The notes under the pieces are model-generated. The model ran no database searches. It was given only the letters and a program-made list of their open reading frames with translations, and was not told the DNA's origin. The position numbers were made by a program, and so were the translations under genes. From the IMG/VR virus record IMGVR_UViG_3300045988_037151, positions 1 to 44,018 of that record: a DNA stretch of 44,018 nucleotides; one strand, written 5' to 3'. The stretch is from a virus. Each line of letters begins with the position of its first letter. Position 1 is the first letter of the stretch. Below, one piece after another: positions 1-44,018 of the stretch.

Positions 1-207
1 GTACACCTGAGCGTCGCCGTACACCCAAGCGTTGCCGTACACCCAAGCGTTGCCGTACACCCGAGCGTTGCCGGACACCCAAGCGTTGCCGTACACCTGA
101 GCGTTGCCGTACACCTGAGCGTTGCCGTACACCTGAGCGTCGCCGTACACCTGAGCGTCGCCGTACACCCAAGCGTTGCCGTACACCCAAGCGTTGCCGG
201 ACACGTC
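1..207 (-). repeat. 18-bp tandem repeat array (coding; Y/S-G-N/D-A-W/Q/R-V hexapeptides), left part of the copy A array
   Basis: Contiguous units gccgtacacc[ct][ag]agcg[tc][tc], with no spacers, in frame with the CDS. Confidence 0.9.
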
Positions 208-348: not shown

Positions 349-581
349 GTGTTGTCTCCCCCACTATCCAGATAATACGTTGCGTACTCCGTCCTGTGCC
401 CGGTGCGGCTCTTGCCTTCCGTGCGCTCGGTCAGGATGGTGTAGCCCTCTGCCCTCAGGTCGTAAATACGACCGCTCAATCTTGTGCACCCGAACAGCTC
501 AAAGGATTCCATGCTGGTGATTTTGCCGTGCTTTTTCAGGTGCTCCAAGATTTGCTTGCGCTGAGTGGTCAGGTTGTCCAT
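345..581 (-). CDS. Small winged-helix DNA-binding protein (HTH_39-like phage family)
   Basis: 78 aa: MDNLTTQRKQILEHLKKHGKITSMESFELFGCTRLSGRIYDLRAEGYTILTERTEGKSRTGHRTEYATYYL. The pattern (ITS.E.F...G.TRLS.RI.DLR..GY.I) matches a common phage HTH family recalled from memory. Confidence 0.65.
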   Translation of the reverse strand: MDNLTTQRKQILEHLKKHGKITSMESFELFGCTRLSGRIYDLRAEGYTILTERTEGKSRTGHRTEYATYYLDSGGDNT

Positions 582-585
582 ACCC

Positions 586-771
586 TCACTCCTTTTCCAG
601 CCCGAACCGCTGGAGCAATCTCCTTCGGGGGACTTTAACCGGGTTATCCAGTGTGAACAGTCCCTCTTTCTTCATTTCGGCGTTGATCTTGCGCAGGACT
701 TCCCGCGCTGACTGTTCGCCGATGCCCAGCAGAGCTGCCGCTTCGCGGGCGGTGATAAGCTGTCTGGTCAT
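586..771 (-). CDS. Small HTH DNA-binding protein (excisionase/MerR-like fold)
   Basis: 61 aa. The segment ITAREAAALLGIGEQSAREVLRKI looks like a helix-turn-helix. The gene is tightly packed in the early operon. Confidence 0.5.
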   Translation of the reverse strand: MTRQLITAREAAALLGIGEQSAREVLRKINAEMKKEGLFTLDNPVKVPRRRLLQRFGLEKE

Positions 772-972
772 TTATTTCACCTCTGCGTCATCTTCTAGCA
801 ATTCGCTGATTTTGCAGCCATAAAGTGCAGCAAGCTTTTCAAGGTTACTCCTTCTCGGGAGAGCTGCTCCGCTTTCCCACAGGAACACGGTCGGTCTGGC
901 CACTCCAATAGCCTTGCTCACATCATCCTGAGTCAGCCCAGCGACCAGACGCAGGGCTTTCATTTTCATCAT
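772..972 (-). CDS. XRE-family HTH protein, Cro-like first gene of the early operon
   Basis: 66 aa. LRLVAGLTQDDVSKAIGVARPTVFLWESG is a canonical XRE HTH. AGGAGG lies upstream of the ATG, and a consensus promoter sits immediately upstream. Confidence 0.8.
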   Translation of the reverse strand: MMKMKALRLVAGLTQDDVSKAIGVARPTVFLWESGAALPRRSNLEKLAALYGCKISELLEDDAEVK

Positions 973-996
973 TTGCTCACCTCCTTTTGCTCTTTC

Positions 997-1063
997 TTAC
1001 GAACTGTAAATCTATTATATTACAATATGTTAAGTTTGTAAATACAAAAATACCGTTTCGTAA
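997..1063 (-). promoter_or_regulatory. Early leftward promoter with flanking inverted repeats (candidate operators)
   Basis: On the minus strand: TTTACA (1042..1037), a 17-nt spacer, then TATAAT (1019..1014). It is flanked by ttacgaa (997..1003) and ttcgtaa (1057..1063). ATTTAC(A/G) occurs three times. Confidence 0.55.
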
Positions 1064-1065
1064 AT

Positions 1066-1251
1066 TTATTTCAGCAGGTTTTTCACGTTCTCAGAGGTCA
1101 AAGCACATTCCCGTTTGTAGCTTCCGTCGATGTCATACACTAGCAGCCAGCCACTGACATACTGGACAAAACCGCCATTCGGCAGCTCGAGGATTGCGAG
1201 CTCGTTTTGCCAGAGCCAGTCGGAAATGGCCTCATAAATGGAGGTGGTCAT
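1066..1251 (-). CDS. Hypothetical small protein
   Basis: ATG at 1251, 3 nt after the stop of the DUF932 gene. 61 aa starting MTTSIYEAISDWLWQNELAILELPNGG... The longer ORF-track start at 1446 overlaps the upstream gene and is unlikely. Confidence 0.5.
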   Translation of the reverse strand: MTTSIYEAISDWLWQNELAILELPNGGFVQYVSGWLLVYDIDGSYKRECALTSENVKNLLK

Positions 1252-1253
1252 GT

Positions 1254-2180
1254 TCACACCCCCTTTCCGACCGCAGCGGCCATCTGGTCGATGAGATAAT
1301 GGCCGCTCATGACGCGGTTCCAGTTGTTGGCCTGATAGCTGGCGGTGTTGCGGTGGGGCTTGGTGTGCGTCACCATATCGGACATGGCATTGACTGCGCC
1401 CCATGCGGTGTTGCGGAATTTGGCGATGTCGGGGGCGAACCAGCACACCATATACTCATCTTTGAGCTGCTGGACGTGACGCTTCTGGAGATCGCTCATG
1501 TCGTCGTTCGCCGGGAACAGGTCGTTCAGGATTTCCCGCAGCCGGTCATCGGTGACGGTCTTGTTCGCCAGCCGGTCGGCCTGCTCCGCCAGATCGGTCA
1601 TATAGCCGTTGGCCATATCGAGGCAGTGCCGCGCCTCGCTCAGTTTAGCGGAGATGTCGCCCACATGGTGCACGCTCCAAGCACGCTGTGCACCGTTGAG
1701 AGCGAGGTTCAGGGTGTTGTTGCAGACGACCCGGATGGGGGTCATGCAGACGCGGATTGCGCCCGTGCCGTCGTGACTATTGGTAAATACCATGTAAGGC
1801 TCGGTCTTATCGCCGCAAATTTCGGTGTCCGGCATCTTTGCCAGCAGCCAGATCTTCTTGCCGCCGCAAAGGCTTCCGGCGGTTTCATAGTGGACGTCGC
1901 TACCAATCAGGGAGTCGGTGAAGCTGAATGCCTCTGCATTCTGAACGACGCGATAGCGGTTGCCAACGATGCCCAAGCAGGAGCCGTCGCTATCACGGAT
2001 GTTGGCCTTGTAGCCGGGAATTTCCATGCCGTCAGCAAAGACGGGGTGCTGTTCTACCGTCCAATCAAGGCCAGCCAGCCGGAGAGCTTCCTCACTGTTG
2101 GGTGCTTCCTGCACCATCGTTCCCAGACCGTGCCAGGGCTTTTCGCGGACATACATCATCGTTTCAACGTTTGCGCTCAT
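1254..2180 (-). CDS. DUF932 (phage/plasmid-like, TIGR03299-type) protein
   Basis: 308 aa. The N-terminus MMYVREKPWHGLG..V......EALRLAGLDWTVE and the segments GIVGNRY..VQN, NSHDG. and CNNTL match the DUF932 pattern as I recall it. Confidence 0.75.
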   Translation of the reverse strand: MSANVETMMYVREKPWHGLGTMVQEAPNSEEALRLAGLDWTVEQHPVFADGMEIPGYKANIRDSDGSCLGIVGNRYRVVQNAEAFSFTDSLIGSDVHYETAGSLCGGKKIWLLAKMPDTEICGDKTEPYMVFTNSHDGTGAIRVCMTPIRVVCNNTLNLALNGAQRAWSVHHVGDISAKLSEARHCLDMANGYMTDLAEQADRLANKTVTDDRLREILNDLFPANDDMSDLQKRHVQQLKDEYMVCWFAPDIAKFRNTAWGAVNAMSDMVTHTKPHRNTASYQANNWNRVMSGHYLIDQMAAAVGKGV

Positions 2181-2261
2181 TTGAATAACCTCCTATATGT
2201 GTGACCTGCCATCATCAGCGCCGGGCGGTCAGCCCCGACGGACGCCCGAAGGCGTTTCGGC

Positions 2262-2456
2262 TCATCTAAGCGCGAAGCGGATAACGTGTTCCTGGCGGAA
2301 GGTCACGGTTCCGAAGAACCCACTGAAATCAAGAATCTGATCCTGATACCAGTTGCCGCGAGTGACGAAGTTCCCGAGTGTATCGTAGATTTCGATGGTG
2401 TCATCGTCCGTGATGGTCTGGCTCATAATCAAACTGCTCAGTTTGTAGATTTTCAT
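2262..2456 (-). CDS. Hypothetical small protein, first gene of the DUF932 operon
   Basis: ATG at 2456 preceded by GGAGG (caggaggaaaagctATG). 64 aa starting MKIYKLSSLIMSQTITDDD... Confidence 0.5.
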   Translation of the reverse strand: MKIYKLSSLIMSQTITDDDTIEIYDTLGNFVTRGNWYQDQILDFSGFFGTVTFRQEHVIRFALR

Positions 2457-2497
2457 AGCTTTTCCTCCTGTCTGTCTGCTTTGTCTTTTCTGACTAT

Positions 2498-2583
2498 AAT
2501 ATAGCATAAATCTAACATATTGTAAAGTACTGTTTTTCATTTTGTTAGATTTTATTTACACGGCGTTATTTTTGTTGTAAAAT
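2498..2583. promoter_or_regulatory. Divergent promoter pair with an inverted-repeat operator (genetic switch)
   Basis: Leftward promoter: TTTACA (2526..2521), 17 nt, TATATT (2503..2498). Rightward promoter: TTTACA (2555..2560), 17 nt, TAAAAT (2578..2583). The inverted repeat aaatctaaca (2508..2517) / tgttagattt (2543..2552) overlaps the leftward spacer and abuts the rightward -35. Confidence 0.55.
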
Positions 2584-2610
2584 ATACTCAAATTAGGGAG
2601 GTGTTACCCT

Positions 2611-2958
2611 GTGCCGAACCGAATCAGAGCCGTGCGAAAGCAAAATCGTTTTAGTCAAGCCGAACTAGCGCAAAGACTCGAAGTGTCGGAACCTACTATA
2701 AGCAATTATGAAACAGGAAAAAGAGAGCCGGATAAAGCAACGTGGGTCAGGCTTTCTCGGATACTTGGTGTATCCGTTGATTATCTAATGGGGCTGGACG
2801 CAGAAAAAGCCGCCACCCCAGAGGGTAGCGGCTTGGATGAAGGCGCAAGATACTTGCTCCAACGGTATAAAGATGCAAAGACGGACGAAGAGCGCAAGCG
2901 CATTATCACGGCGGTTGAGATCGCGGTGAACCTAGACAAGAGCACAAAAGATGAATAA
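2611..2958 (+). CDS. XRE-family repressor (CI-like candidate)
   Basis: GTG start at 2611 with AGGGAGG at 2595..2601. The 115-aa product contains RFSQAELAQRLEVSEPTISNYETGKREP, an XRE HTH. It is divergent from the leftward operon. Confidence 0.8.
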   Translation: MPNRIRAVRKQNRFSQAELAQRLEVSEPTISNYETGKREPDKATWVRLSRILGVSVDYLMGLDAEKAATPEGSGLDEGARYLLQRYKDAKTDEERKRIITAVEIAVNLDKSTKDE

Positions 2959-3268
2959 GCAGGATTTACGCCTGTTGAAAGCAGTGGTAGCCAGTGAAAA
3001 GAACAGCAAAGAAGAAGCTGGGATAAGAGTAAGTCCGGAAGATATGCAAGTTGCAAAGCGATTACATTGTGACGGGTATATTGTGTTGATGGGGCCGAAT
3101 TCAGATGGAGTTGTTGCCGCCTTTGCAACGGATGAAGGAAAGCAGCTGCTTACCGATCTCCGCAAAGAACGTGCAAACAGCATCCAGAAATGGGTAACGG
3201 CCAGCGCAGCAGTAGTCGCCGCACTGGCCGCAGTGGTCGGTGTTGTCTTACAGGTTGTGCTGCATTAA
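2951..3268 (+). CDS. Hypothetical protein with a C-terminal transmembrane anchor
   Basis: 105 aa, overlapping the repressor stop by 8 nt. The C-terminus WVTASAAVVAALAAVVGVVLQVVLH is hydrophobic. Confidence 0.5.
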   Translation: MNKQDLRLLKAVVASEKNSKEEAGIRVSPEDMQVAKRLHCDGYIVLMGPNSDGVVAAFATDEGKQLLTDLRKERANSIQKWVTASAAVVAALAAVVGVVLQVVLH

Positions 3269-5046: not shown

Positions 5047-5646
5047 ATGAGAACACGGGAAGAATTGCGGGATGGATGCGCCCTTTTGTTGCAAAATTTG
5101 CGGAAGCGTGTCGGACTGCCAAAATACAGGATGGCAGAGATGGTAGGTGTAGACTTGCGCACATGGGATAAGTACGAGTCTGGGAAAGCTTCTCCCCGTG
5201 TAGATGAATTTATCGCATGGTTTGATCTCTTTCGTGTTGATGCGCTTGCCGCCGTGCTGGAATACCTTTACCCGGATGTGTATACGCTAACGCAGGATAG
5301 CAGTATTGACGAGCTGCGCCGTGCAGCGCTACACTATATAGGCAATGTCGCATCCGATCGCACAATCCAGAAGTTTGATTTTCTTGTTTTCGGGAGACAC
5401 GGATCGAACATCGGGGCGCAATCTGAGGAGTTTGTGATGTTAGATCACCTGCCGCTGACTATGCGTCTGGCGGTCGCATCCTTAATTGACATCCTGTATG
5501 AGACGGCCAGTGCAAACGGTCTACTGGTCAACACGGAGCATGCCATGCCAAATGTGGAGACATTCCGCGACGGCCTGAGGAAAGGCCGGGAGGCCGTCAT
5601 GGAGGGCAAGACGAGCTATACAACGTCGGTGGTGAGCAAGGTATGA
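5047..5646 (+). CDS. XRE-type HTH protein with an uncharacterised C-terminal domain, translationally coupled to the integrase
   Basis: AAGGAGG upstream. The 199-aa product contains LPKYRMAEMVGVDLRTWDKYESGKASP, an HTH. Its stop overlaps the integrase ATG (ATGA). Confidence 0.65.
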   Translation: MRTREELRDGCALLLQNLRKRVGLPKYRMAEMVGVDLRTWDKYESGKASPRVDEFIAWFDLFRVDALAAVLEYLYPDVYTLTQDSSIDELRRAALHYIGNVASDRTIQKFDFLVFGRHGSNIGAQSEEFVMLDHLPLTMRLAVASLIDILYETASANGLLVNTEHAMPNVETFRDGLRKGREAVMEGKTSYTTSVVSKV

Positions 5647-7738: not shown

Positions 7739-8161
7739 TCAGCTTACGCGCTCGACAATCAGATTGCTGTTGGCAAAGCTGACGGCCTGAGTGCTGGTGT
7801 TTTCGGCGGCAATGGTCACGCAGCAGCCACGCGGAACTTCTACGAAGGCCGCTACATAGATGTTCCAGTAATTTTCCACAGCGGCAGGAGTCACGGTAGC
7901 AGTTGCGCTGGTCAGCGGCTCACCATTGATTGCAAGAGCGGCGGTGATTGCCTCCACCGTGCCACCCGTGGGGATGGCAACATTCGCGCCGAAGGAGACC
8001 TTAAAACGTGCTTTGCACTGGTTAGTCAGTCCACGCAGTGTGACGATGCCGGCGCCTTCACGATGCACGATGCAGGGCTTGCCCGCAACGGCGGTTTCGG
8101 GCAGAGGCACATTCTGCCCGGCGGCAACAGACGTAATATTGGAGTTTGTGTATTCAGCCAT
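7739..8161 (-). CDS. Beta-rich small protein; possibly a BclA C-terminal (C1q/TNF-like) domain
   Basis: 140 aa. The order NVPLPETAV...GIVTLRG...ARFKVSF...LAINGEPL...NSNLIVERVS parallels the B. anthracis BclA C-terminal domain as I recall it (PVPFNTV...YKITV...IQVNGVPV...SASIIIEKVA). No collagen-like repeats are present. Confidence 0.4.
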   Translation of the reverse strand: MAEYTNSNITSVAAGQNVPLPETAVAGKPCIVHREGAGIVTLRGLTNQCKARFKVSFGANVAIPTGGTVEAITAALAINGEPLTSATATVTPAAVENYWNIYVAAFVEVPRGCCVTIAAENTSTQAVSFANSNLIVERVS

Positions 8162-8176
8162 TTTCTCAGTCCTTTC

Positions 8177-8205
8177 AAAAAACGGCGGGGCATATCACCC
8201 CGCCG
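8177..8205 (-). terminator. Intrinsic terminator/attenuator inside the cargo cassette
   Basis: cggcgggg (8183..8190) pairs with ccccgccg (8198..8205) around a 7-nt loop. On the minus strand this is followed by TTTTTT (8182..8177). It sits 16 nt upstream of the ATG at 8161. Confidence 0.55.
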
Positions 8206-8271
8206 CAAAATCTCAGTATCAACACGGGGTTGACCATCCGAGGATTTCTCGGAAGCTGATGTGTTCGGTTG

Positions 8272-9024
8272 TCAGCAGGAGGCGCAGCACCCCAGAGCCG
8301 CGTTACTAGCCCACGGGTTACAGGACTGGTAGGCAGGGATAGGGGTAGGTCTAAGGGTGGTGACCAGATAGTTGTTCTGCGCCGCCTGAGACGCAGCCAG
8401 CTGGGCGGCGAAGAGCTGCTGATTCTGCTCGGCAATCTTCGCATCCTTCTGGGCAATCTCCTGAGCGGTCAAGCGCTGTTCGATGCCCCGGAAACCGGCG
8501 TTCATGCTGTCGATGATGTCGCGGGTGGTATTCTGCACGGTGTTGCGGGTATCACAAGCCTGAGTGGCCATGTCATACCGCACCTGAGCGATTGCCGCCC
8601 GGTTTTCGCAGCAGCACTCCTGCGCCTGCATCTGCATCTGGGACAGCTGCTGCATCAATGCAGCCTGCTGGTTTGCGCGGGACAGTTCAGCGGACATAAA
8701 GCCATTGCTCATGCTCTGCTGGACGCCGTTGACCAACTGCGCCTGCTGGTAAAAACCGTCGCACAGACCGTTGTTCACTACGTCGATTTTGCGCTCAATA
8801 TTGGCAAAGTCAGAGGTGAGAATGTATCCATCGACAGCGCCAGAACCATTGCCGCCGAAGCCACTATTGCCCCAGTTTCCGCCCCAACCGCAAAACACGA
8901 ACAAGAACAGGATAATAATCCACCATGCACCGTCTCCGCCCCAGCCGAAGCCATTACCATTGCCAGTGTTGGCAGGCTGAACCGGCATTGTCATCACAGT
9001 GCCGCTATCGGAATTAAGACTCAT
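8272..9024 (-). CDS. Gly/Trp-rich membrane protein with a Q-rich coiled region and a Cys-rich C-terminus (cargo cassette E)
   Basis: 250 aa. The N-terminal segment GNGNGFGWGGDGAWWIIILFLFVFCGWGGNWGNSGFGGNG has YjcZ-like composition. The middle is Q-rich and contains ECCCEN. The end is LRPTPIPAYQSCNPWASNAALGCCASC. Confidence 0.55.
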   Translation of the reverse strand: MSLNSDSGTVMTMPVQPANTGNGNGFGWGGDGAWWIIILFLFVFCGWGGNWGNSGFGGNGSGAVDGYILTSDFANIERKIDVVNNGLCDGFYQQAQLVNGVQQSMSNGFMSAELSRANQQAALMQQLSQMQMQAQECCCENRAAIAQVRYDMATQACDTRNTVQNTTRDIIDSMNAGFRGIEQRLTAQEIAQKDAKIAEQNQQLFAAQLAASQAAQNNYLVTTLRPTPIPAYQSCNPWASNAALGCCASC

Positions 9025-9072
9025 TGAAAGACTCCTCTCGTTTGATTTTATTTGTAATTTGCGGCCACAAAT

Positions 9073-9255
9073 TTACATCAAATTCTGAAACATTTTCGCC
9101 ATTTGCTGAAGCTGGTTTAGCTGTTGCTGGCTCATCTTGCCGGACTGGAGCAGCTTTTCCACCTCGGCTTTCGGGTCGCCCTGAAACGATTGCTTAAACT
9201 GCTGAAACTGGTTCATCATCTGCTGAAACTGCATCATCGGGTTCCCGTTAAACAT
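9073..9255 (-). CDS. Small Q/M/F-rich protein (cargo cassette D)
   Basis: 60 aa: MFNGNPMMQFQQMMNQFQQFKQSFQGDPKAEVEKLLQSGKMSQQQLNQLQQMAKMFQNLM. Confidence 0.5.
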   Translation of the reverse strand: MFNGNPMMQFQQMMNQFQQFKQSFQGDPKAEVEKLLQSGKMSQQQLNQLQQMAKMFQNLM

Positions 9256-9679
9256 CTGGCTCTGCCTCCTTTGCCCTTCTTGTAGGCTTTTGCTCCAATT
9301 TGTTCACCTTTTGTACGAGTCCGTCAAACTCGTCCCGGGTAATGTATTCCGGCGTAACCTGTGGAGCTGTCGGTTCGTCATCGTCCGTGTAAGACATGGT
9401 TTTCATCGGGTAAGGAGATCCATTCATATCACGGCTTTTCCAGAAAAACTTATGTCCAGCTCTCCACCAAAGGAGGACGGATGCACCGGCAGCGACAAGA
9501 TAGCCTGTTGCCTCGTTCTCACTGCCGACCTCGACCACATTGATTTGCTGCGTAGGTTGTGCCATGTTCTGCTGCTGTGCAGGCTGTGTCATCGCGGTGT
9601 TAGGCTGATTCATCATCGGCTGGAACTGCATCTGCGGATAATAGGGGTTTCCGTACATATAGGGGTTATAGGCCATCAC
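9248..9679 (-). CDS. P/Q/M/Y-rich N-terminus plus a small globular domain (cargo cassette C)
   Basis: 143 aa. It starts MMAYNPYMYGNPYYPQMQFQPMMNQPN..., continues VVEVGSENEATGYLVAAGASVLLWWRAGHKFFWKSRDMNGSPYPMKT, and overlaps both neighbouring genes. Confidence 0.55.
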   Translation of the reverse strand: MMAYNPYMYGNPYYPQMQFQPMMNQPNTAMTQPAQQQNMAQPTQQINVVEVGSENEATGYLVAAGASVLLWWRAGHKFFWKSRDMNGSPYPMKTMSYTDDDEPTAPQVTPEYITRDEFDGLVQKVNKLEQKPTRRAKEAEPDV

Positions 9680-31110: not shown

Positions 31111-31347
31111 TCACCCTGTTTCTCTCTCGTTTTTCTTCTTTCGCCGCAGGATTGTGTACGCAAAATACCGCACATCGTCCATGCAGTTATGTACGATTAT
31201 CCCGCCATTTACGGAAAAGTTATGGAAATCATCAACTTCCATGTTGTACACAGCTTCTTTCCCCGCTTTTTTTATGCTGGTTATTCCAACGAAGTTTATC
31301 CCCACAGGATGCTGAGCAACATTTCCTTTTTGTGTATTTGTTTGCAA
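31111..31347 (-). CDS. terL: Intein C-terminal splicing half fused to the TerL C-extein (start uncertain: 31305, 31347 or 31395)
   Basis: ...ITSIKKAGKEAVYNMEVDDFHNFSVNGGIIVHN|CMDDVRYFAYTILRRKKKNERETG carries Hint blocks F/G, then Cys+1, then the terminase D..RY motif. The TTG at 31347 has GGAGGTG at 31360..31354. This ORF is in a third reading frame. Confidence 0.6.
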   Translation of the reverse strand: MQTNTQKGNVAQHPVGINFVGITSIKKAGKEAVYNMEVDDFHNFSVNGGIIVHNCMDDVRYFAYTILRRKKKNERETG

Positions 31348-32201
31348 CAAACTCACCTCCACACACGATGCAGTGCCGAACCTCGTCATCGACACCGCTC
31401 AGCACTCTAGCCTTTGTTTTGCACCTATTTGAGCAAAACTTAACTGTACCAAGTGGCTTTTTATAAAACACCTTACCGCAGCATTCGCATGTGTACGGTC
31501 TTTCTTCTAAATTTTCGATGGTTTCTTTTGCGTGTGCAGAGTGCCACGCCCACCCCTCTTTGCTGTGATGCCACTCTGCTGCTTTTGGCGTCGCATTCGT
31601 CACAAGATTTCTACACATTGCGTCGTAATTCTCTTTTGCCCTTTTGGCGGAGTGATAACTTGTATGGGAAGTACCAAGCACACATATCAGGTTTTCGATG
31701 GAATTGTTTCCCTTATCCTCGTCTTTGTGGTGAATGTGGTACCCTTCTGGTACCGCCCCGTTATAGCGCCTCCAAACATAGCAGTGGAGCCGTTCACGCT
31801 TCCCTGCGTCTGTCCTCCTAGAGGATAGGTAATAGCCCGTCTTCATGTCCCTTCGGAACTTATAGCCATCGCAGACGGCAACTCCTTTATTTTCACTGTA
31901 CTTAATTTCCACTTTCTCAACCTCCAATACATGCAATCCTATCATTGCTGCGCAGGTCTCTTACTGCAACCCATCCTCTTTCCGTCAAAATAGGGTGTTC
32001 AGCGGTTGCTTTTACCTTCTTTCCGTTAGCTAACTCAATTTCGAACACTTCCGCTTCTGCTTGCGTCATTCTCACATTGTGAAACCGGCGCTCCTTTGCG
32101 GTGCTTCCATCCGTACAAATGGCAAATCCATTCTTTCCGACAAGGTCTTTTATGCGAACCTGCCCGTAAACCGTATCTACTAGCGTATCGCCCGTTAAGC
32201 A
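31186..32201 (-). mobile_element. Intein/homing-endonuclease element inserted in terL (split arrangement)
   Basis: Bounded by Cys1 (codon 32201..32199) and the terminal Asn (31188..31186). The length is 1016 nt, not a multiple of 3, and three reading frames are used. Confidence 0.75.
31232..31912 (-). CDS. Free-standing HNH homing endonuclease lying between the intein halves
   Basis: GTG at 31912 with GGAGG at 31925..31921 (8-nt spacing), 4 nt after the IntN stop. Motifs: HIHHKDEDKGNNSIENLICV...H (HNH) and two zinc ribbons, CECCG...FCSNRC and CIVCG...CCSASC. Confidence 0.8.
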   Translation of the reverse strand: MEIKYSENKGVAVCDGYKFRRDMKTGYYLSSRRTDAGKRERLHCYVWRRYNGAVPEGYHIHHKDEDKGNNSIENLICVLGTSHTSYHSAKRAKENYDAMCRNLVTNATPKAAEWHHSKEGWAWHSAHAKETIENLEERPYTCECCGKVFYKKPLGTVKFCSNRCKTKARVLSGVDDEVRHCIVCGGEFVANKYTKRKCCSASCGDKLRWNNQHKKSGERSCVQHGS

Positions 32202-33338
32202 ATGGTCATTCTCTTTGATCGGCTTGTCCTCTGTGCTTTTGTCGTCCCATCGGTACAGGCCGAACTCCCGGATGCAGTCTTTGCAACTGCGATGCACCCT
32301 GATTGTGCCGTCCTGCAAATACCGGGCAGTTGTGTTGATTCCGGCGATAACGTCGTTTTTCGCCTTGCGGACGATAAACCGCTTGTGCCGCCGAATGACC
32401 TCTATAAACGATGCAGCCGACGGGTCAACAATGACACTCTTGATGTATAGATCGCCGGCCAGCTTCTCCAGCTCGGTGTAATATTCCTCGTCGGTCTTGT
32501 TGGCCTGCGTCTCGCGCCCGGAATAGTAATACTCGCGGATGCGCGTCGCTGTCTTGCCGTCCCAGCACCAAAGGCCAGCCGAAAACGGGTTCAGCGTGCC
32601 GTAGTCACAACTGATAAAATATTCTCCCTGCTTTGGCTCATCATCCACAATGCAGTCATCGTTAAACATAGGATAGATCAAGCCCTCAGCCAGCACCCAG
32701 CGGCCTAAGATGTAGCGCTCATAAAAGACGCCGGTGTACATCGACTTGTAGCGTTCAAGCACTTTTGCAGACAGCGCCGGGTTGTCGTCCATTGAAAAAT
32801 GCAAATAGAGGGCGTTGTGGTCGTCCGCCCTCTGAATCCAATTCGTGTAAAACCAATGCTGGGGGGAAGCAGGGTTACATGAAAACCAGATTCTAGACCC
32901 GTCCACAGAGCAACGCGCCAAAGCCTGATTGACGAACGATTCCGGCATAAGCACGACCTCGTCTAAAAGGACACCGGCCAGCGTTCGACCCTGAATCAGC
33001 ATAAAGGAACTTTCATCCTTGCCGCCGAACACCTCAAAATAATTCTTTCGGCCTTTGTACGCCACTTCGAGGATGTGTTCTCCACGCCGCCACCGGAGGC
33101 CGTATGTCTTTTTCGCCTCCGTCATTGAGATAAACGGCACGATGATATTCTTCGCCGCCGAATCAACGGTCTTCCCGCAGACGCCGAACCGCATTCCATC
33201 GAAATTATCCATCGCCCAGCGGATAAACGCCCACATCATGAATGTGGTCTTACCAGAACGAACGGCTCCGTCGCAAATTAGCACATCCTTATCAGTGTAC
33301 GGATATGCCAGAATCGCCTTTTGCTTTTTGCTGATCAT
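31917..33338 (-). CDS. terL: Terminase large subunit N-extein (ATPase plus most of the nuclease) fused to the intein N-terminal splicing half
   Basis: Walker A DGAVRSGKTT and Walker B GVLLDEV. At residue 380 the sequence switches to CLTGDTLVDT (Hint block A), then ...KATAEHPILT (block B), and stops 94 aa into the intein. Confidence 0.85.
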   Translation of the reverse strand: MISKKQKAILAYPYTDKDVLICDGAVRSGKTTFMMWAFIRWAMDNFDGMRFGVCGKTVDSAAKNIIVPFISMTEAKKTYGLRWRRGEHILEVAYKGRKNYFEVFGGKDESSFMLIQGRTLAGVLLDEVVLMPESFVNQALARCSVDGSRIWFSCNPASPQHWFYTNWIQRADDHNALYLHFSMDDNPALSAKVLERYKSMYTGVFYERYILGRWVLAEGLIYPMFNDDCIVDDEPKQGEYFISCDYGTLNPFSAGLWCWDGKTATRIREYYYSGRETQANKTDEEYYTELEKLAGDLYIKSVIVDPSAASFIEVIRRHKRFIVRKAKNDVIAGINTTARYLQDGTIRVHRSCKDCIREFGLYRWDDKSTEDKPIKENDHCLTGDTLVDTVYGQVRIKDLVGKNGFAICTDGSTAKERRFHNVRMTQAEAEVFEIELANGKKVKATAEHPILTERGWVAVRDLRSNDRIACIGG

Positions 33339-33514: not shown

Positions 33515-33887
33515 CGCTTTCCAACCCTTCCGCAAACTCCCGCAGGCTCTTGCTCAGCTCATCTTCACGGCCTGTATCGCTGTCGGTGTTCTGTTCACCG
33601 GTCTCCGTCTGGTTGAGCACCTGCTTACCGAGCCAAATCGCCATGCCAGCGTTCTTTTTTGCCAAATTCCACTGGTAACGGCGTAGTGAGATTTTACCTA
33701 CACAGCGCTTCTTTTTATATACATCGGAAAAACCTTCCTTGTATTCGCGCTTACACCATGCTGTGAGTGTCTTTTCGTCGATTTTGAACCATGCGCAAAT
33801 CTCGTCCTTTGTGCATTGGAGTGCGCACAGCTTTTCAAACGCTTCTTTGTCAATCTCTTTTCTCGGTCGAGCCACTATTCTCACCAC
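33501..33887 (-). CDS. terS: Terminase small subunit
   Basis: 128 aa. ARPRKEIDKEAFEKLCALQCTKDEICAWFKIDEKTLTAWCKREY is the typical TerS N-terminal HTH. The exact start (33887, 33884 or 33875) is uncertain. Confidence 0.7.
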   Translation of the reverse strand: MVRIVARPRKEIDKEAFEKLCALQCTKDEICAWFKIDEKTLTAWCKREYKEGFSDVYKKKRCVGKISLRRYQWNLAKKNAGMAIWLGKQVLNQTETGEQNTDSDTGREDELSKSLREFAEGLESDEVC

Positions 33888-34833
33888 TTTTCTTGACCTT
33901 TTTCGTTTTCACAAGTACCTTGTCCGGGTTCTGTTTTGCATACTTGCGGAATGTCTCTGTTATCGCAGCGTCGATTGCTTTCCTGTCCTTCACCAACACG
34001 CCAACTTTGAACGGTTTTAGGATATGCTTGAACCACTGTTCACCAGGTTCGTTTTGCGCTGTGATGTTCTGTCCTCTCGACCGCATACCGCACTTATACT
34101 TATCGCCATATAGGCGTCGCATATGTTCTCCGCGTTTCACTCCGGCGGCAGCGTATGCTTTGCGGCACCCAGTCAAGTCTTTGTTTTTCGCTTGCCCGGT
34201 TTTGGAGTAGCGTAAGCAAGCGACCTGAATAGAGGGAACGCCCATCTGCCAGCATTTTAGCCGGTATTCGATGTCGTCCTCAAAGTCGCCGTGAAATATA
34301 GGGGGGCAAATCTCTAAGTTGAGTGCGAAAAAGCTATATACATACCGCTCGGACATAAATGTCATATCCGGGTTAGAGCAAGCAGCCAAATTGCACCCAG
34401 CCATTCCGGCATTTGTGTTTTCAAGGATTGTTACAAGGATATTCACAAAATCATCCAACATATTCTGGGTTTCATGCACTCTATAACGGCGAATGATTTT
34501 ATCCTTGCGCTTGTCCTGATAGGCAAGCTCGAGAAAATTAATGTTATCGTCGAGCTGCACCAGATACTTGTAGCCATGCTCCTTCGCATATTTGATTGCG
34601 AAGGAACGGTTCATCGGTGCGTACCATGCGCTATCCGAGTTTTTCACAGTGCTTTTGTACCACTCTGCATAATCGTCAGGGACGTTCACAATCTCCCATT
34701 CGGATTCGTAGCCATTGGAGTCGTTGGAGATAATGCGGTGCGGATAAGACACGTTAAAGCGCTCCGTTTTCCGCGCCTGAGATGTTCCGGGTCGTTTGCC
34801 GGATATTTCACACACAAGCACGTCATTCCTCAT
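33850..34833 (-). CDS. Uncharacterised enzyme-like protein, possibly a GT-A-fold glycosyltransferase
   Basis: 327 aa. VLVCEISGKRPG looks like beta1; KYLVQLDDNINF is DxD-like; HGDFEDDIEYRLKCWQMGV is a second acidic motif. The C-terminal tail is basic. The fold call is inference from motif spacing only. Confidence 0.35.
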   Translation of the reverse strand: MRNDVLVCEISGKRPGTSQARKTERFNVSYPHRIISNDSNGYESEWEIVNVPDDYAEWYKSTVKNSDSAWYAPMNRSFAIKYAKEHGYKYLVQLDDNINFLELAYQDKRKDKIIRRYRVHETQNMLDDFVNILVTILENTNAGMAGCNLAACSNPDMTFMSERYVYSFFALNLEICPPIFHGDFEDDIEYRLKCWQMGVPSIQVACLRYSKTGQAKNKDLTGCRKAYAAAGVKRGEHMRRLYGDKYKCGMRSRGQNITAQNEPGEQWFKHILKPFKVGVLVKDRKAIDAAITETFRKYAKQNPDKVLVKTKKVKKSGENSGSTEKRD

Positions 34834-35365
34834 CGCTTTGTTCTCCAGCGCTCTCTATCTTTTCCATTTGTTCCCGCATAGACTGAATGCGCTTAATCTT
34901 TTCCTCGTTCTCGCTCCTGAATACAACCTCGTAAGTCACGCCGTACTCGTTATCGTCCAGTGCGCTATTGTCTTTCTCGTCGAGCGTATTGTCGAAAACG
35001 TCGCTCAGCTCAAACCCGGTGAAAATATCATCCAGATCGTCAAGTTCTTCCAGCAGCTTTTTGTTGTCCCAGATGGAGTTATCAGACACTCGGTTATCGG
35101 CAAGACGGAATGCCTTGACCTGCTTGGGCGTAAGGTCGGCGGCAATCACACAGGGCACTTCGGTCAGGCCAAGCTGCTTTGCTGCCTTATATCTGGTGTG
35201 ACCGCAAACAATGACATAATCTTTGTCCAGCACGATTGGCACTTTGAACCCGAATTCGGAAATGCTTTTTGCGACAGATTCGACGGCGCCGTCATTCATG
35301 CGTGGGTTGTTCTCATAAGGCGTGATTTCATCCATGCTGACATATACAATATCGAGACTGTCCAT
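34823..35365 (-). CDS. ParB-like nuclease (ParB N-terminal) domain protein
   Basis: 180 aa. ITPYENNPRMNDGAVESVAKSISEFGFKVPIVLDKDYVIVCGHTRYKAAKQLGL is a ParB/Srx-fold signature (..NPR.....GH.R). Confidence 0.8.
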   Translation of the reverse strand: MDSLDIVYVSMDEITPYENNPRMNDGAVESVAKSISEFGFKVPIVLDKDYVIVCGHTRYKAAKQLGLTEVPCVIAADLTPKQVKAFRLADNRVSDNSIWDNKKLLEELDDLDDIFTGFELSDVFDNTLDEKDNSALDDNEYGVTYEVVFRSENEEKIKRIQSMREQMEKIESAGEQSDEE

Positions 35366-37793: not shown

Positions 37794-38379
37794 TTGCGAC
37801 AGCCTCCAGCAGTTCTGGCGCATATCTCCTTGCGGCCAGCTCGATATATAGGCGCATTTCAGCTGCAAGTTCCGGTGTTTCTCCTGTCTCGGCGGCGTGC
37901 CGTTCATTGTTCGCGAGCCACCATGCGATCGTATGCACCTGACAGCCGATGCGCAACTCAGTCGCACTTGCCATGTTGACGTAATATTTAGACGTCTGGA
38001 TTTGGAGCGGCGAGACATCCCACGCATCGCCGTACACCCACGCATTGCCGGACACCCACGCATTGCCGTACACCTGCGCATTGCCGGACACCTGCGCATT
38101 GCCGGACACCCACGTATTGCCGTACACCTGCGCATCGCCGTACACCTGCGCATCGCCGTACACCTGCGCATTGCCGTACACCTGCGCATTGCCGGACACC
38201 TGCGCATCGCCGTACACCCACGCATTGCCGGACACGTCTAAATTTTTTTCATTTTCGACCCAGCCGCCCAGGTCTCCCTCTCGGACACCCGCAAAGCTGA
38301 TCCGCGCTTTTATCCTGTGGAGTACAGCACCGTCATCTGTGACTAACGTGTCACTCGTAAATTCATACTTGTTATTCAT
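37783..38379 (-). CDS. YdcK-like hexapeptide-repeat protein, copy B
   Basis: 198 aa: MNNKYEFTSDTLVTDDGAVLHRIKARISFAGVREGDLGGWVENEKNLDVSGNAWVYGDAQV..., about 12 hexapeptides, then WDVSPLQIQTSKYYVN...IGCQVHTIAWWL. It is a paralog of copy A. Confidence 0.8.
   Translation of the reverse strand: MNNKYEFTSDTLVTDDGAVLHRIKARISFAGVREGDLGGWVENEKNLDVSGNAWVYGDAQVSGNAQVYGNAQVYGDAQVYGDAQVYGNTWVSGNAQVSGNAQVYGNAWVSGNAWVYGDAWDVSPLQIQTSKYYVNMASATELRIGCQVHTIAWWLANNERHAAETGETPELAAEMRLYIELAARRYAPELLEAVANEQ
38019..38238 (-). repeat. 18-bp tandem repeat array of copy B
   Basis: Units are cgcat[tc]gccg[tg]acacc[ct][ag]. The peptide period is the same as copy A, but the synonymous codons differ. Confidence 0.9.
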
Positions 38380-43654: not shown

Positions 43655-44018
43655 TTAAACCTCCTTTTTCAAAAGCTCTGGGGCGTATCGCTTCGCCGCA
43701 AGCTCGATATACAGCCTCATTTCCGCTGCAAGCTCAGGTGTTTCCCCTGTTTCAGCGGCGTGTCTCTCGTTGTTATCTAGCCACCAAGCAATCGAGTGCA
43801 CTTGACACCCAATTCTGAGATCGCCCAGAGAAGCAGCATTGACGAAGTACTTGGAGGACTGGATTTGCAGCGGGGATTCGCTCCAAGCGTCGCCGTACAC
43901 CCAAGCGTTGCCGTACACCCGAGCGTTGCCGTACACCCAAGCGTCGCCGTACACCCAAGCGTTGCCGTACACCTGAGCGTCGCCGTACACCCAAGCGTTG
44001 CCGTACACCCAAGCGTTG
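43655..44018 (-). CDS. YdcK-like hexapeptide-repeat protein, copy A, C-terminal part (joins 348..1 across the circular junction)
   Basis: ...YGNAWVYGDAWSESPLQIQSSKYFVNAASLGDLRIGCQVHSIAWWLDNNERHAAETGETPELAAEMRLYIELAAKRYAPELLKKEV. It is in frame with 348..1 once the 52-nt overlap is collapsed. Confidence 0.8.
   Translation of the reverse strand, partial: NAWVYGNAWVYGDAQVYGNAWVYGDAWVYGNARVYGNAWVYGDAWSESPLQIQSSKYFVNAASLGDLRIGCQVHSIAWWLDNNERHAAETGETPELAAEMRLYIELAAKRYAPELLKKEV
43883..44018 (-). repeat. 18-bp tandem repeat array, right part of the copy A array
   Basis: Same unit as 1..207. About 16 units in total after collapsing the overlap. Confidence 0.9.
43967..44018. repeat. 52-nt terminal overlap identical to positions 1..52 (circularisation signature)
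   Basis: Read directly: both are gtacacctgagcgtcgccgtacacccaagcgttgccgtacacccaagcgttg. The overlap lies inside an 18-bp tandem array, so the unit count could be mis-assembled. Confidence 0.9.

Follow-up and report, generated by a model that had tools for sequence, protein, structure and literature searches.

We analysed the gene for the terminase large subunit (terL) on a stretch of viral DNA of 44,018 nt, IMG/VR record IMGVR_UViG_3300045988_037151. This whole stretch is called the window in the following; coordinates refer to it unless a related locus is named, and all features of the terminase locus lie on its minus strand. In this siphovirus-like phage the sequence characterizes terL as a true fractured gene and not as a damaged contiguous gene: TerL breaks off inside an intein, whose N- and C-terminal halves lie on separate open reading frames (ORFs) with an independent HNH endonuclease gene between them. 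The two halves most probably form a split intein that acts by trans-splicing. An earlier note on this DNA had proposed such a fractured gene. The proposal is strengthened by the conservation of the three-ORF layout in 26 diverged loci with varying frame relations, by selection on each ORF in its own frame, by HNH homologues that are stand-alone proteins and by cultured phages with the same layout.

Layout of the terminase locus

The locus consists of three minus-strand ORFs in three different frames, with codon-start coordinates modulo 3 of 2, 1 and 0. Its features are listed below; the N- and C-terminal intein parts are called IntN and IntC, the flanking host parts ExtN (N-extein) and ExtC (C-extein), and a slash within a sequence marks a junction.

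31917..33338, minus strand: ORF1, TerL N-extein plus IntN, 473 aa, with the Walker A motif GAVRSGKT
32202..33338, minus strand: TerL N-extein, 379 aa with the C-terminal end ...PIKENDH, comprising the ATPase domain and the larger part of the RNase H-like nuclease domain
31917..32201, minus strand: IntN, 94 aa plus TGA stop (31919..31917), with Cys1, block B TAEHP and block N4 ...RIACIGG
31921..31925, minus strand: Shine-Dalgarno sequence GGAGG of the HNH gene, within the last IntN codons, with an 8-nt spacer to GTG 31912
31232..31912, minus strand: HNH endonuclease gene, 226 aa plus stop, GTG start, HNH_3 core HIHHKDEDKGNNSIENL, two CxxC...CxxxC zinc ribbons
31356..31360, minus strand: Shine-Dalgarno sequence GGAGG (extended GGAGGTG) of the C-terminal piece, within the HNH coding sequence, with spacers of 5 nt to TTG 31350 and 8 nt to TTG 31347
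31186..31350, minus strand: IntC, 55 or 54 aa from the probable start TTG 31350 or 31347, with the end ...GGIIVHN
31232..31350, minus strand: overlap of the HNH gene and IntC, 119 nt in different frames
31111..31185, minus strand: C-extein, 24 aa plus stop, CMDDVRYFAYTILRRKKKNERETG, beginning with Cys+1

ORF1 is matched by Pfam Terminase_6N (E=1.5e-10). At its residue 380 (codon 32201..32199) the intein sets in with CLTGDTLVDT, followed by KATAEHPILT and then by RIACIGG. The third frame reads ...VYNMEVDDFHNFSVNGGIIVHN/CMDDVRYFAYTILRRKKKNERETG* with its stop at 31113..31111, and blocks F and G within it read VYNMEVDDFHNFSV...GGIIVHN/C; the intein-homologous core of IntC starts near GTG 31305 (40 aa). 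Pfam Intein_splicing covers profile positions 9-93 of 155 in ORF1 (E=6e-9) and positions 118-155 of 155 in the third frame (E=3e-5), and the break between the intein halves falls between block N4 and block F. The 226-aa ORF between them is matched by Pfam HNH_3 (E=3e-13, 49.6 bits against a cut-off of 24.8) and by PHROG 15471 'HNH endonuclease' (E=2.5e-40), and the annotation of the ENA contig calls it as a 226-aa gene. From the first to the last intein codon (32201..31186) the element spans 1016 nt, which is no multiple of 3.

Re-reading the ORFs, motifs, stops and Shine-Dalgarno sequences reproduced all coordinates of the earlier note, among them the non-triplet intein span. Its assignment of the flanking ORFs to the N- and C-terminal halves of a Hint domain and of the middle ORF to an HNH nuclease agrees with the Pfam Intein_splicing and HNH_3 matches. 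The two candidate starts that it had named for the C-terminal piece, TTG 31347 and GTG 31305, are both present, next to a neighbouring TTG at 31350.

Related loci, insertion site and mobile cassette

Related loci were collected from IMG/VR and GTDB genomes in a scan with an IntN alignment, to which loci from GenBank phages and ENA contigs were added. This gave 29 related loci, 26 of them split and 3 with contiguous mini-inteins. Cys1, the terminal His-Asn and Cys+1, which lay outside the search patterns, are kept in all 29, and the relatives have block B as (T/S)xxH. The IntN of the window is 44-72% identical to that of 28 related loci, and in the 26 split loci the IntN frame is closed 91-133 residues after Cys1. 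By tblastn, homologues of each of the three pieces were found in the same order in dozens of loci (E 1e-14 to 1e-95). At the nucleotide level, a megablast search of the 2.4-kb region against GenBank phages gave no match; relatives were found only by protein-level searches, and with respect to the host they point to Clostridia and Negativicutes.

The frame relation between IntN and the HNH gene varies among the relatives. It is +1 in the window, L002-7, L015, L018 and L020, 0 with a stop in between in L008-11 and L014, and -1 in L012 and L019. The HNH gene of the relatives starts with an ATG at the aligned position (M-K/I-V-x-Y-S), directly after the IntN stop or overlapping it, and the gene junctions include TGAaatATG, TAGaaaATG and ATGA overlaps. 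Of the 120 TerL homologues that match best, 17 contain a Hint domain and end 0-39 residues past ...IACIGG (or the equivalent of a second intein class), although their identity to the window is no higher than 65-75%; the longest homologue in this set (534 aa) is a contiguous mini-intein without HNH. Several protein clusters of split alleles have more than 100 member sequences. The identical 473-aa ORF occurs on three contigs. L001, an independent assembly of 43.9 kb, shares 99.87% identity with the window over 13.4 kb, the sole gap being one 18-nt unit of a tandem array (38119..38136), far from TerL. For IntN, HNH and IntC-ExtC, each compared in its own frame, nonsynonymous differences (pN, 0.17-0.34) are rarer than synonymous ones (pS, 0.6-0.9), which indicates purifying selection on each of the three ORFs.

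Individual relatives depart from the common pattern. In L006 the HNH gene is interrupted by an in-frame stop after 110 codons (around 4169 of that locus), and in one C. botulinum strain (L170, 2771..2956) IntN is frameshifted into a separate 61-aa ORF. In L168 (4001..6262 and 7829..9428) the TerL site is occupied by a second IntN class that looks unrelated (CLTGDTVVNTVFGGRKIKDLVGKFGFVW...). This intein is also split and its HNH is 47.5% identical to that of the window; a Mu-F-like gene on the same contig also gives an Intein_splicing match. One intein-free TerL homologue of NCBI source (P0011, 501 aa) contains two internal duplicated segments (QKKILAFPYSRFDAIICDGAVRSGKT... and GRYYISCDYGTLNPFSAGLW...), which are probably an assembly artefact.

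The relatives also inform the start of the C-terminal piece. In L010, L018, L020 and L013/16/17 an ATG behind a Shine-Dalgarno sequence opens IntC, which is then 39-42 aa long, and in the first three of these loci, L010, L018 and L020, this ATG is preceded by a stop codon at a distance of one codon or less. The clade of the window has a common start 32 codons before VYNMEV, a TTG in the window, L002, L003 and L004 and an ATG in L005. In L168 a 78-aa IntC-ExtC gene is called, whose ATG behind GGAGG-N5 aligns with TTG 31350 of the window (MLRTNTKK vs LLQTNTQK). Because of these starts common to relatives, including the called gene of L168, the C-terminal piece of the window probably starts at TTG 31350 or 31347 behind GGAGG 31360..31356, giving an IntC of 55 or 54 aa. 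The TTG 31347 proposed by the earlier note coincides with the ATG of L005, and the adjacent TTG 31350 with the called ATG of L168. GTG 31305 was considered as another start; it has neither a Shine-Dalgarno sequence upstream nor a conserved start in the relatives and is less likely than the two TTG codons.

Two of the relatives are cultured phages. Lactobacillus phage CL2 (KR905067, L084) carries TerL-IntN, an HNH gene and an IntC-ExtC ORF; the latter (about 2530..2733, ...VYNMEVESHHNFAVDGGFIVHN/CMDATRYF...) lies in an unannotated 144-nt gap between the HNH and portal genes. In Brochothrix phage BL3 (L085) TerL-IntN is gp2 and IntC-ExtC is the unnamed gp3 (98 aa, 2311..2607); only the C-terminal third of its HNH survives. 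Fractured prophages are also found in the isolates Megasphaera cerevisiae DSM 20462 and Clostridium botulinum CP031097. The small IntC-ExtC ORF is usually missed by gene callers, being unannotated in CL2 and uncalled on the ENA contig of the phage studied here, with the result that TerL appears truncated and the HNH gene appears to be an unrelated neighbour.

The insertion point of the element is defined by an intein-free allele (P0001, 407 aa), whose TerL is 95% identical and reads ...PIKENDH/AMDDVRYFAYTVL... The intein is inserted at ENDH/A, in the TerL nuclease domain between ENDH and (A/C)MDDVRY; the +1 residue is Ala in the intein-free alleles and Cys in all intein alleles. The junction from ENDH to MDDVRY and the insertion point that the earlier note had proposed match this extein alignment. 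The contig of P0001 (L083) and the window share 92.3% nucleotide identity over 2636 nt, in an alignment that ends exactly at the last N-extein codon. The empty junction reads:

L083, empty-allele junction: AATGACCAC/GCGATGGAT

Past the insertion point (window 31111..31185 vs L083 5140..5224) identity collapses: the tail of the C-extein differs and the portal proteins share 36% amino-acid identity. The sequences therefore place the intein and HNH element at a recombination (mosaic) boundary.

In the D6E phage TerL structure 5OE8, which P0001 matches with E=3.7e-127, the segment NDH-AMDDVRYFAYTVL aligns with residues ~402-418. By comparison with RNase H-like terminase nucleases in general, the conserved Asp of the C-extein motif may be a metal ligand. 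In D6E TerL, helix alpha6 and a C-terminal arm (residues 418-427) have been described, the arm touching the ATPase site (PMC5727402). From the alignment and this description, both the final helix of the nuclease domain and the C-terminal arm come from the 24-aa C-extein, which thus contributes a structural and probably catalytic element.

A second comparison isolates the endonuclease gene as a cassette. The mini-intein allele L082 (P0055) and the fractured locus L004 are 94.6% identical on the left and 96.3% on the right, and L082 is without exactly positions 5278..5894 of L004, i.e. 617 nt, a length that is not divisible by 3. The cassette has a GC content of 40.7% vs 47.6% in the flanks, and no microhomology was found at its junctions in this comparison. 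Starting inside the codon after IACI-G, it comprises the stop codon of IntN, the ORF of the HNH protein and the TTG with which IntC opens. Without the cassette the junction reads:

L082, mini-intein-allele junction: TGTATTG/ATGCGCAC

The IntC core of the window aligns with the contiguous mini-intein P0055 from AHINYVGIQ... onward. The 617-nt difference could reflect an insertion into a mini-intein or a precise deletion from a fractured allele. A survey of alleles, which the earlier note had suggested, thus found the empty, contiguous mini-intein and fractured forms. The alternative raised in the same note, an intermediate in the birth of a split intein, also gains support, given that the mini-intein and fractured alleles differ only by the 617-nt cassette.

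Several kinds of cargo occupy the endonuclease slot: a D12 methyltransferase (L013/16/17), a nested out-of-frame HNH (phiCDHM19, TJE1) and an HNH remnant (BL3). In L013 (5282..6529), and also in L016 and L017, a 415-aa D12-class N6-adenine DNA methyltransferase (Pfam E=1.5e-13) lies between the intein halves in place of the HNH, with the same intein family in a TerL of the Terminase_3 type; the methyltransferase of L013 has a QGLQSL-type repeat, and its start overlaps the IntN stop (ATGA). In Clostridium phage phiCDHM19 (L086, TerL 443..2842) and Tetrasphaera phage TJE1 (L087, terL 1020..3206) HNH homologues with 39-41% identity are nested in a different frame inside a contiguous TerL-intein ORF, whose translation in the TerL frame is of low complexity at this place. 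We consider it about evenly balanced whether the family preserves, in near-isogenic form, the single step from a cis-splicing mini-intein to a trans-splicing split intein, in a slot that has since become a general cargo site.

The intein and the HNH gene also differ from their surroundings. In the window the GC content is 52.2% in the N-extein, 47.5% in IntN, 46.8% in HNH and 43.1% in IntC plus C-extein. Between L002 and the window IntN is 72%, HNH 62% and the N-extein 42% identical, and in several loci the exteins are less conserved than intein and HNH; identities above those of the exteins indicate horizontal transfer of both. The 120 HNH homologues that match best are all stand-alone proteins, 160-238 aa long and with PF13392 only, and none is a fusion with a Hint domain. 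In prophages of Gemella and Oceanobacillus an HNH homologue lies between an intein-less Terminase_3 terL and the portal gene, which marks this HNH family as truly free-standing. Among near-identical alleles the HNH gene is sporadic, being missing from L083 (empty) and L082 (mini-intein), which speaks for mobility. Residues H61, H62, N74 and H83 are invariant in 44 HNH homologues, in keeping with the His and Asn residues of an HNH beta-beta-alpha-metal motif. An AlphaFold2 model of the protein has a predicted local distance difference test score (pLDDT) of 93.7, which drops over the last ~16 residues, those overlapping the IntC core, and is below 50 for the last three. A sequence search of the HNH protein against the PDB gave only zinc-finger noise (E at least 0.017). 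An RNA hairpin of the kind that masks the endonuclease ribosome-binding site in other fractured genes was not found at a significant level for the HNH gene (fold of 31880..31975 with z=-1.1; 30 of 200 shuffled sequences were equally good or better).

Beyond the terminase locus, the window encodes a full head and tail module with tape-measure, tail, major-tail, scaffold, Mu-F-like and portal genes, and its ends share an exact repeat of 52 nt that lies in a tandem array of 18-nt units. Given the structural module and the terminal repeat, the genome is probably complete and the contig a circular assembly. The array occupies 1..204 and 43883..44018 (about 11 and 7.6 copies), spanning both window ends. 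A related 18-nt array with 11.8 copies lies at 38023..38235, with a difference of exactly one unit (the 38119..38136 gap mentioned above) between the window and L001. Upstream of the terminase genes a 327-aa ORF (33850..34833, minus strand) matches Pfam PF20691 (TAGT). It is adjoined, upstream in transcription order, by a ParB_N gene at about 34823..35365 (minus strand; 3974..4516 in L001), and the pair is also present in the intein-free L083.

Proposed route to an intact terminase and competing explanations

We propose that the locus gives rise to three products. Product 1 would be ExtN-IntN of 473 aa, i.e. TerL residues 1-379 followed by the 94-aa IntN, whose stop coincides with the canonical split point, also the intein site where homing endonucleases insert. 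The second product would be the free-standing I-HmuI-like HNH endonuclease of 226 aa, translated from GTG 31912, and the third an IntC-ExtC of about 78 aa from TTG 31350/31347, composed of a 54-55-aa IntC and the 24-aa C-extein. IntN and IntC would associate and trans-splice by the class 1 pathway, using Cys1, the T-x-x-H of block B, the terminal His-Asn and Cys+1. Splicing would ligate ...ENDH to CMDDVRY..., yielding a TerL of 403 aa that regains the last nuclease helix and the C-terminal arm; with helix and arm regained in this way, splicing should be required both for packaging and for the cutting of DNA. The HNH protein would be a mobility factor; its gene, a free-standing homing endonuclease gene, would have entered a mini-intein that was still contiguous. 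The incoming cassette would have supplied the IntN stop as well as the ribosome-binding site and start that reopen IntC.

Several points weigh against this proposal. Translation of the C-terminal piece and trans-splicing are steps that we only infer from the sequence, as is the cleavage specificity of the HNH protein. The C-terminal piece is predicted to start with a TTG, and the HNH codons that overlap its Shine-Dalgarno sequence (C-G-G-E) in part prescribe the latter. Near this position L006 has only a TTG without Shine-Dalgarno sequence, and L007 and L008 have no start codon at the aligned position; these three loci would need an ATG about 13 codons further upstream. A charge complementarity between IntN and IntC, as in some natural split inteins, was not seen (net +1 vs 0/-1). 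Patterns of the IntN blocks B and N4 served to retrieve the loci, such that the conservation of these two blocks is partly by construction. Synonymous sites are saturated and often not correctable; the selection is expressed as pN far below pS, since a dN/dS ratio would not be reliable. In a fold search of the PDB, the HNH model came closest to the homing endonuclease I-HmuI (1U3E), with a probability of 0.99 but a match that is weak overall (E=1.7e-3, TM score 0.27-0.33), such that the likeness of the modelled fold is no more than suggestive.

The simplest competing explanation is an ordinary contiguous intein with an inserted HNH domain, whose frames were separated by two single-base errors, one in the GGAGG run near 31921 and one in the A7 run at 31269..31275. 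Both junctions are indeed +1 shifts, 1016 - 2 = 1014 is divisible by 3, the homopolymer lies at the HNH/IntC junction, and reading through it would give ...WNNQHKK-AGKEAVYNMEV. The ORFs recur, however, on three contigs and in the independent assembly L001, and the split lies at the same place in 26 diverged loci, which differ in their frame relations and have genuine stop/start pairs. The homology of the IntC frame to the contiguous mini-intein (AHINYVGIQDIKK...) starts at ~31305, upstream of the A7 run, such that the frame change cannot be at the run, and the K-K codons that form it are not conserved in relatives. With none of the best 120 HNH homologues fused to a Hint domain, and with pN far below pS for IntN, HNH and IntC-ExtC each in its own frame, we regard two such errors as extremely improbable. 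Hardly more probable is that the C-terminal piece has no initiation of its own and that a +1 ribosomal frameshift or transcriptional slippage on A7 yields an HNH-IntC-ExtC fusion as the trans-splicing partner. This would fit the +1 relation of HNH to IntC in nearly all loci and the A7 run within the overlap of the window. The A-run is missing from most relatives, however, IntC opens with an ATG right after a stop in L018 and L020, and a separate 78-aa gene is called in L168. In L010-L012, L018-L020 and CL2 the HNH homology ends before the IntC core, though the ORFs may overlap by a few tens of nt, and the constant +1 relation is explained by joint inheritance of the 3' end of the cassette and the start of IntC. 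Slippage at A7 in particular was rejected, the run not being conserved and IntC homology starting upstream of it.

The locus could also be real but dead, the endonuclease gene having broken TerL and left a packaging-defective relic. Decay is seen among the relatives, in the in-frame stop of the L006 HNH, the frameshifted IntN of L170 and the HNH remnant of BL3. All splicing residues are nevertheless kept, IntN and IntC-ExtC have pN far below pS across lineages with saturated synonymous sites, and several protein clusters of split alleles exceed 100 members. CL2 and BL3 are isolated, propagating phages with a split TerL, fractured prophages occur in isolates, and the window has its full head and tail module and terminal repeats, so that a packaging-dead relic is unlikely. 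Of similarly low probability is that the HNH protein serves the terminase as a packaging cofactor instead of being a homing endonuclease. HNH proteins encoded beside terminase genes in HK97-like phages reportedly act in this way, as Kala et al. are said to have found in 2014, and the HNH homologues always adjoin terL, even in the intein-less prophages. Yet the gene appears dispensable, being missing from the near-identical L083 and from L082; it is replaced by a D12 methyltransferase gene in L013/16/17, degraded in BL3 and interrupted in L006. The GC content of the cassette is foreign, and the best, albeit weak, fold match (TM 0.27-0.33) is a homing endonuclease. Somewhat less remote, but still improbable, is a non-covalent reassembly of the TerL pieces in which the intein halves only dimerise, as in the split NrdA of phage Aeh1. 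Rescue of an HNH-split gene by protein-protein interaction has precedent (PMC3045599; Aeh1 nrdA in PMC2677866). Against it, Cys1, (T/S)xxH, His-Asn and Cys+1 are invariant in 29/29 loci despite only 44-72% intein identity, and these residues serve catalysis and not association. The +1 residue, Ala without and Cys with intein, is the signature of a splicing requirement. The invariant Cys1, His-Asn and Cys+1 together with the Ala to Cys change at +1 therefore support catalysis rather than mere association.

If trans-splicing occurs as proposed, a widespread group of phages of Firmicutes would complete its packaging ATPase-nuclease only after translation. The dependent systems would include culturable ones: CL2 (L. 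paracasei), BL3 (Brochothrix) and the prophages of M. cerevisiae DSM 20462 and C. botulinum. The family holds all relevant allele states, i.e. empty, mini-intein, fractured, nested out-of-frame and endonuclease remnant. This allele series is a tractable genetic system in which the 2009 gene-breaking model of split-intein origin becomes testable. The natural canonical split inteins of the family (Cys1/Cys+1, ~94 aa plus 40-55 aa) may also be candidates for protein engineering.

Comparison with known fractured genes and split inteins

Fractured genes, including one terminase locus, were described in 2009 by Dassa, London, Stoddard, Schueler-Furman and Pietrokovski (NAR, PMC2677866), such that the novelty of the arrangement had been rated too high in the earlier note. 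In their definition a fractured gene consists of ExtN-IntN, a free-standing endonuclease gene and IntC-ExtC; the endonucleases were GIY-YIG or Vsr-like, HNH genes were predicted to be able to fracture genes as well, and in the model put forward the invading element supplies an upstream stop and a downstream start (PMC2677866). The window has the same order on one strand, the same break at the canonical endonuclease-insertion region and a phage origin. Its endonuclease is an independent gene with its own GTG and Shine-Dalgarno sequence and not an in-frame intein domain, as that definition demands. IntN (94 aa) lies within the range of 88-105 aa of the Dassa set, and IntC with 40 or 54 aa within that of 33-54 aa, which the 55 aa from TTG 31350 exceed by one. 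The 3' end of the endonuclease gene overlaps the 5' end of IntC in both, by 119 nt in the window compared to 6-69 bp. The 617-nt cassette seen between L004 and L082 does exactly what the Dassa model requires, bringing a stop and a start.

There are also differences. The endonuclease of the window is HNH_3 (I-HmuI-like), unlike the GIY-YIG and Vsr-like enzymes of the Dassa set, where the type was not treated as defining. The spacer before the endonuclease gene is 4 nt, compared to 27-51 nt. The terminase locus of the Dassa set is gp17-like and broken at an atypical point with a 122-aa IntC, whereas the break in the window is canonical. The family of the window reaches cultured phages and isolate prophages, unlike that set. 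A PolB intein system resembles the window in having an HNH-family ORF between ORFs with blocks A, N2, B, N4 and blocks F, G, but its host gene is PolB, it has Ser at positions 1 and +1, and it is known from a single genome without an allelic series.

Free-standing endonuclease genes that invade the endonuclease slot of inteins, with TerL among the hosts, have been reported for actinobacteriophages (Gosselin, Arsenault, Gogarten, bioRxiv 10.1101/2025.01.02.630785). The out-of-frame endonuclease state of that type is the one found for the HNH family of the window in phiCDHM19 and TJE1. Inteins of the Gosselin type keep the frame open and splice in cis, whereas the frame of the window is closed; for this reason the intein would have to act in trans. 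The intein of the window resembles Npu/Ssp DnaE, gp41-1 and NrdJ-1 in its class 1 Cys1/T-x-x-H/His-Asn residues, the split site and the similar sizes of the halves, and the contiguous allele matches the Mtu RecA mini-intein (E=2.4e-10) as well as Npu DnaE (4KL5, 2KEQ) and NrdJ-1 (8UBS; E ~1e-8). The DnaE halves are encoded at distant loci, whereas those of the window are adjacent with only the endonuclease gene between them. A literature search found no description of a family of HNH-type TerL genes fractured at the canonical site. The arrangement as such is well documented and not new; what the present family adds is a near-isogenic series of alleles and hosts that can be cultured.

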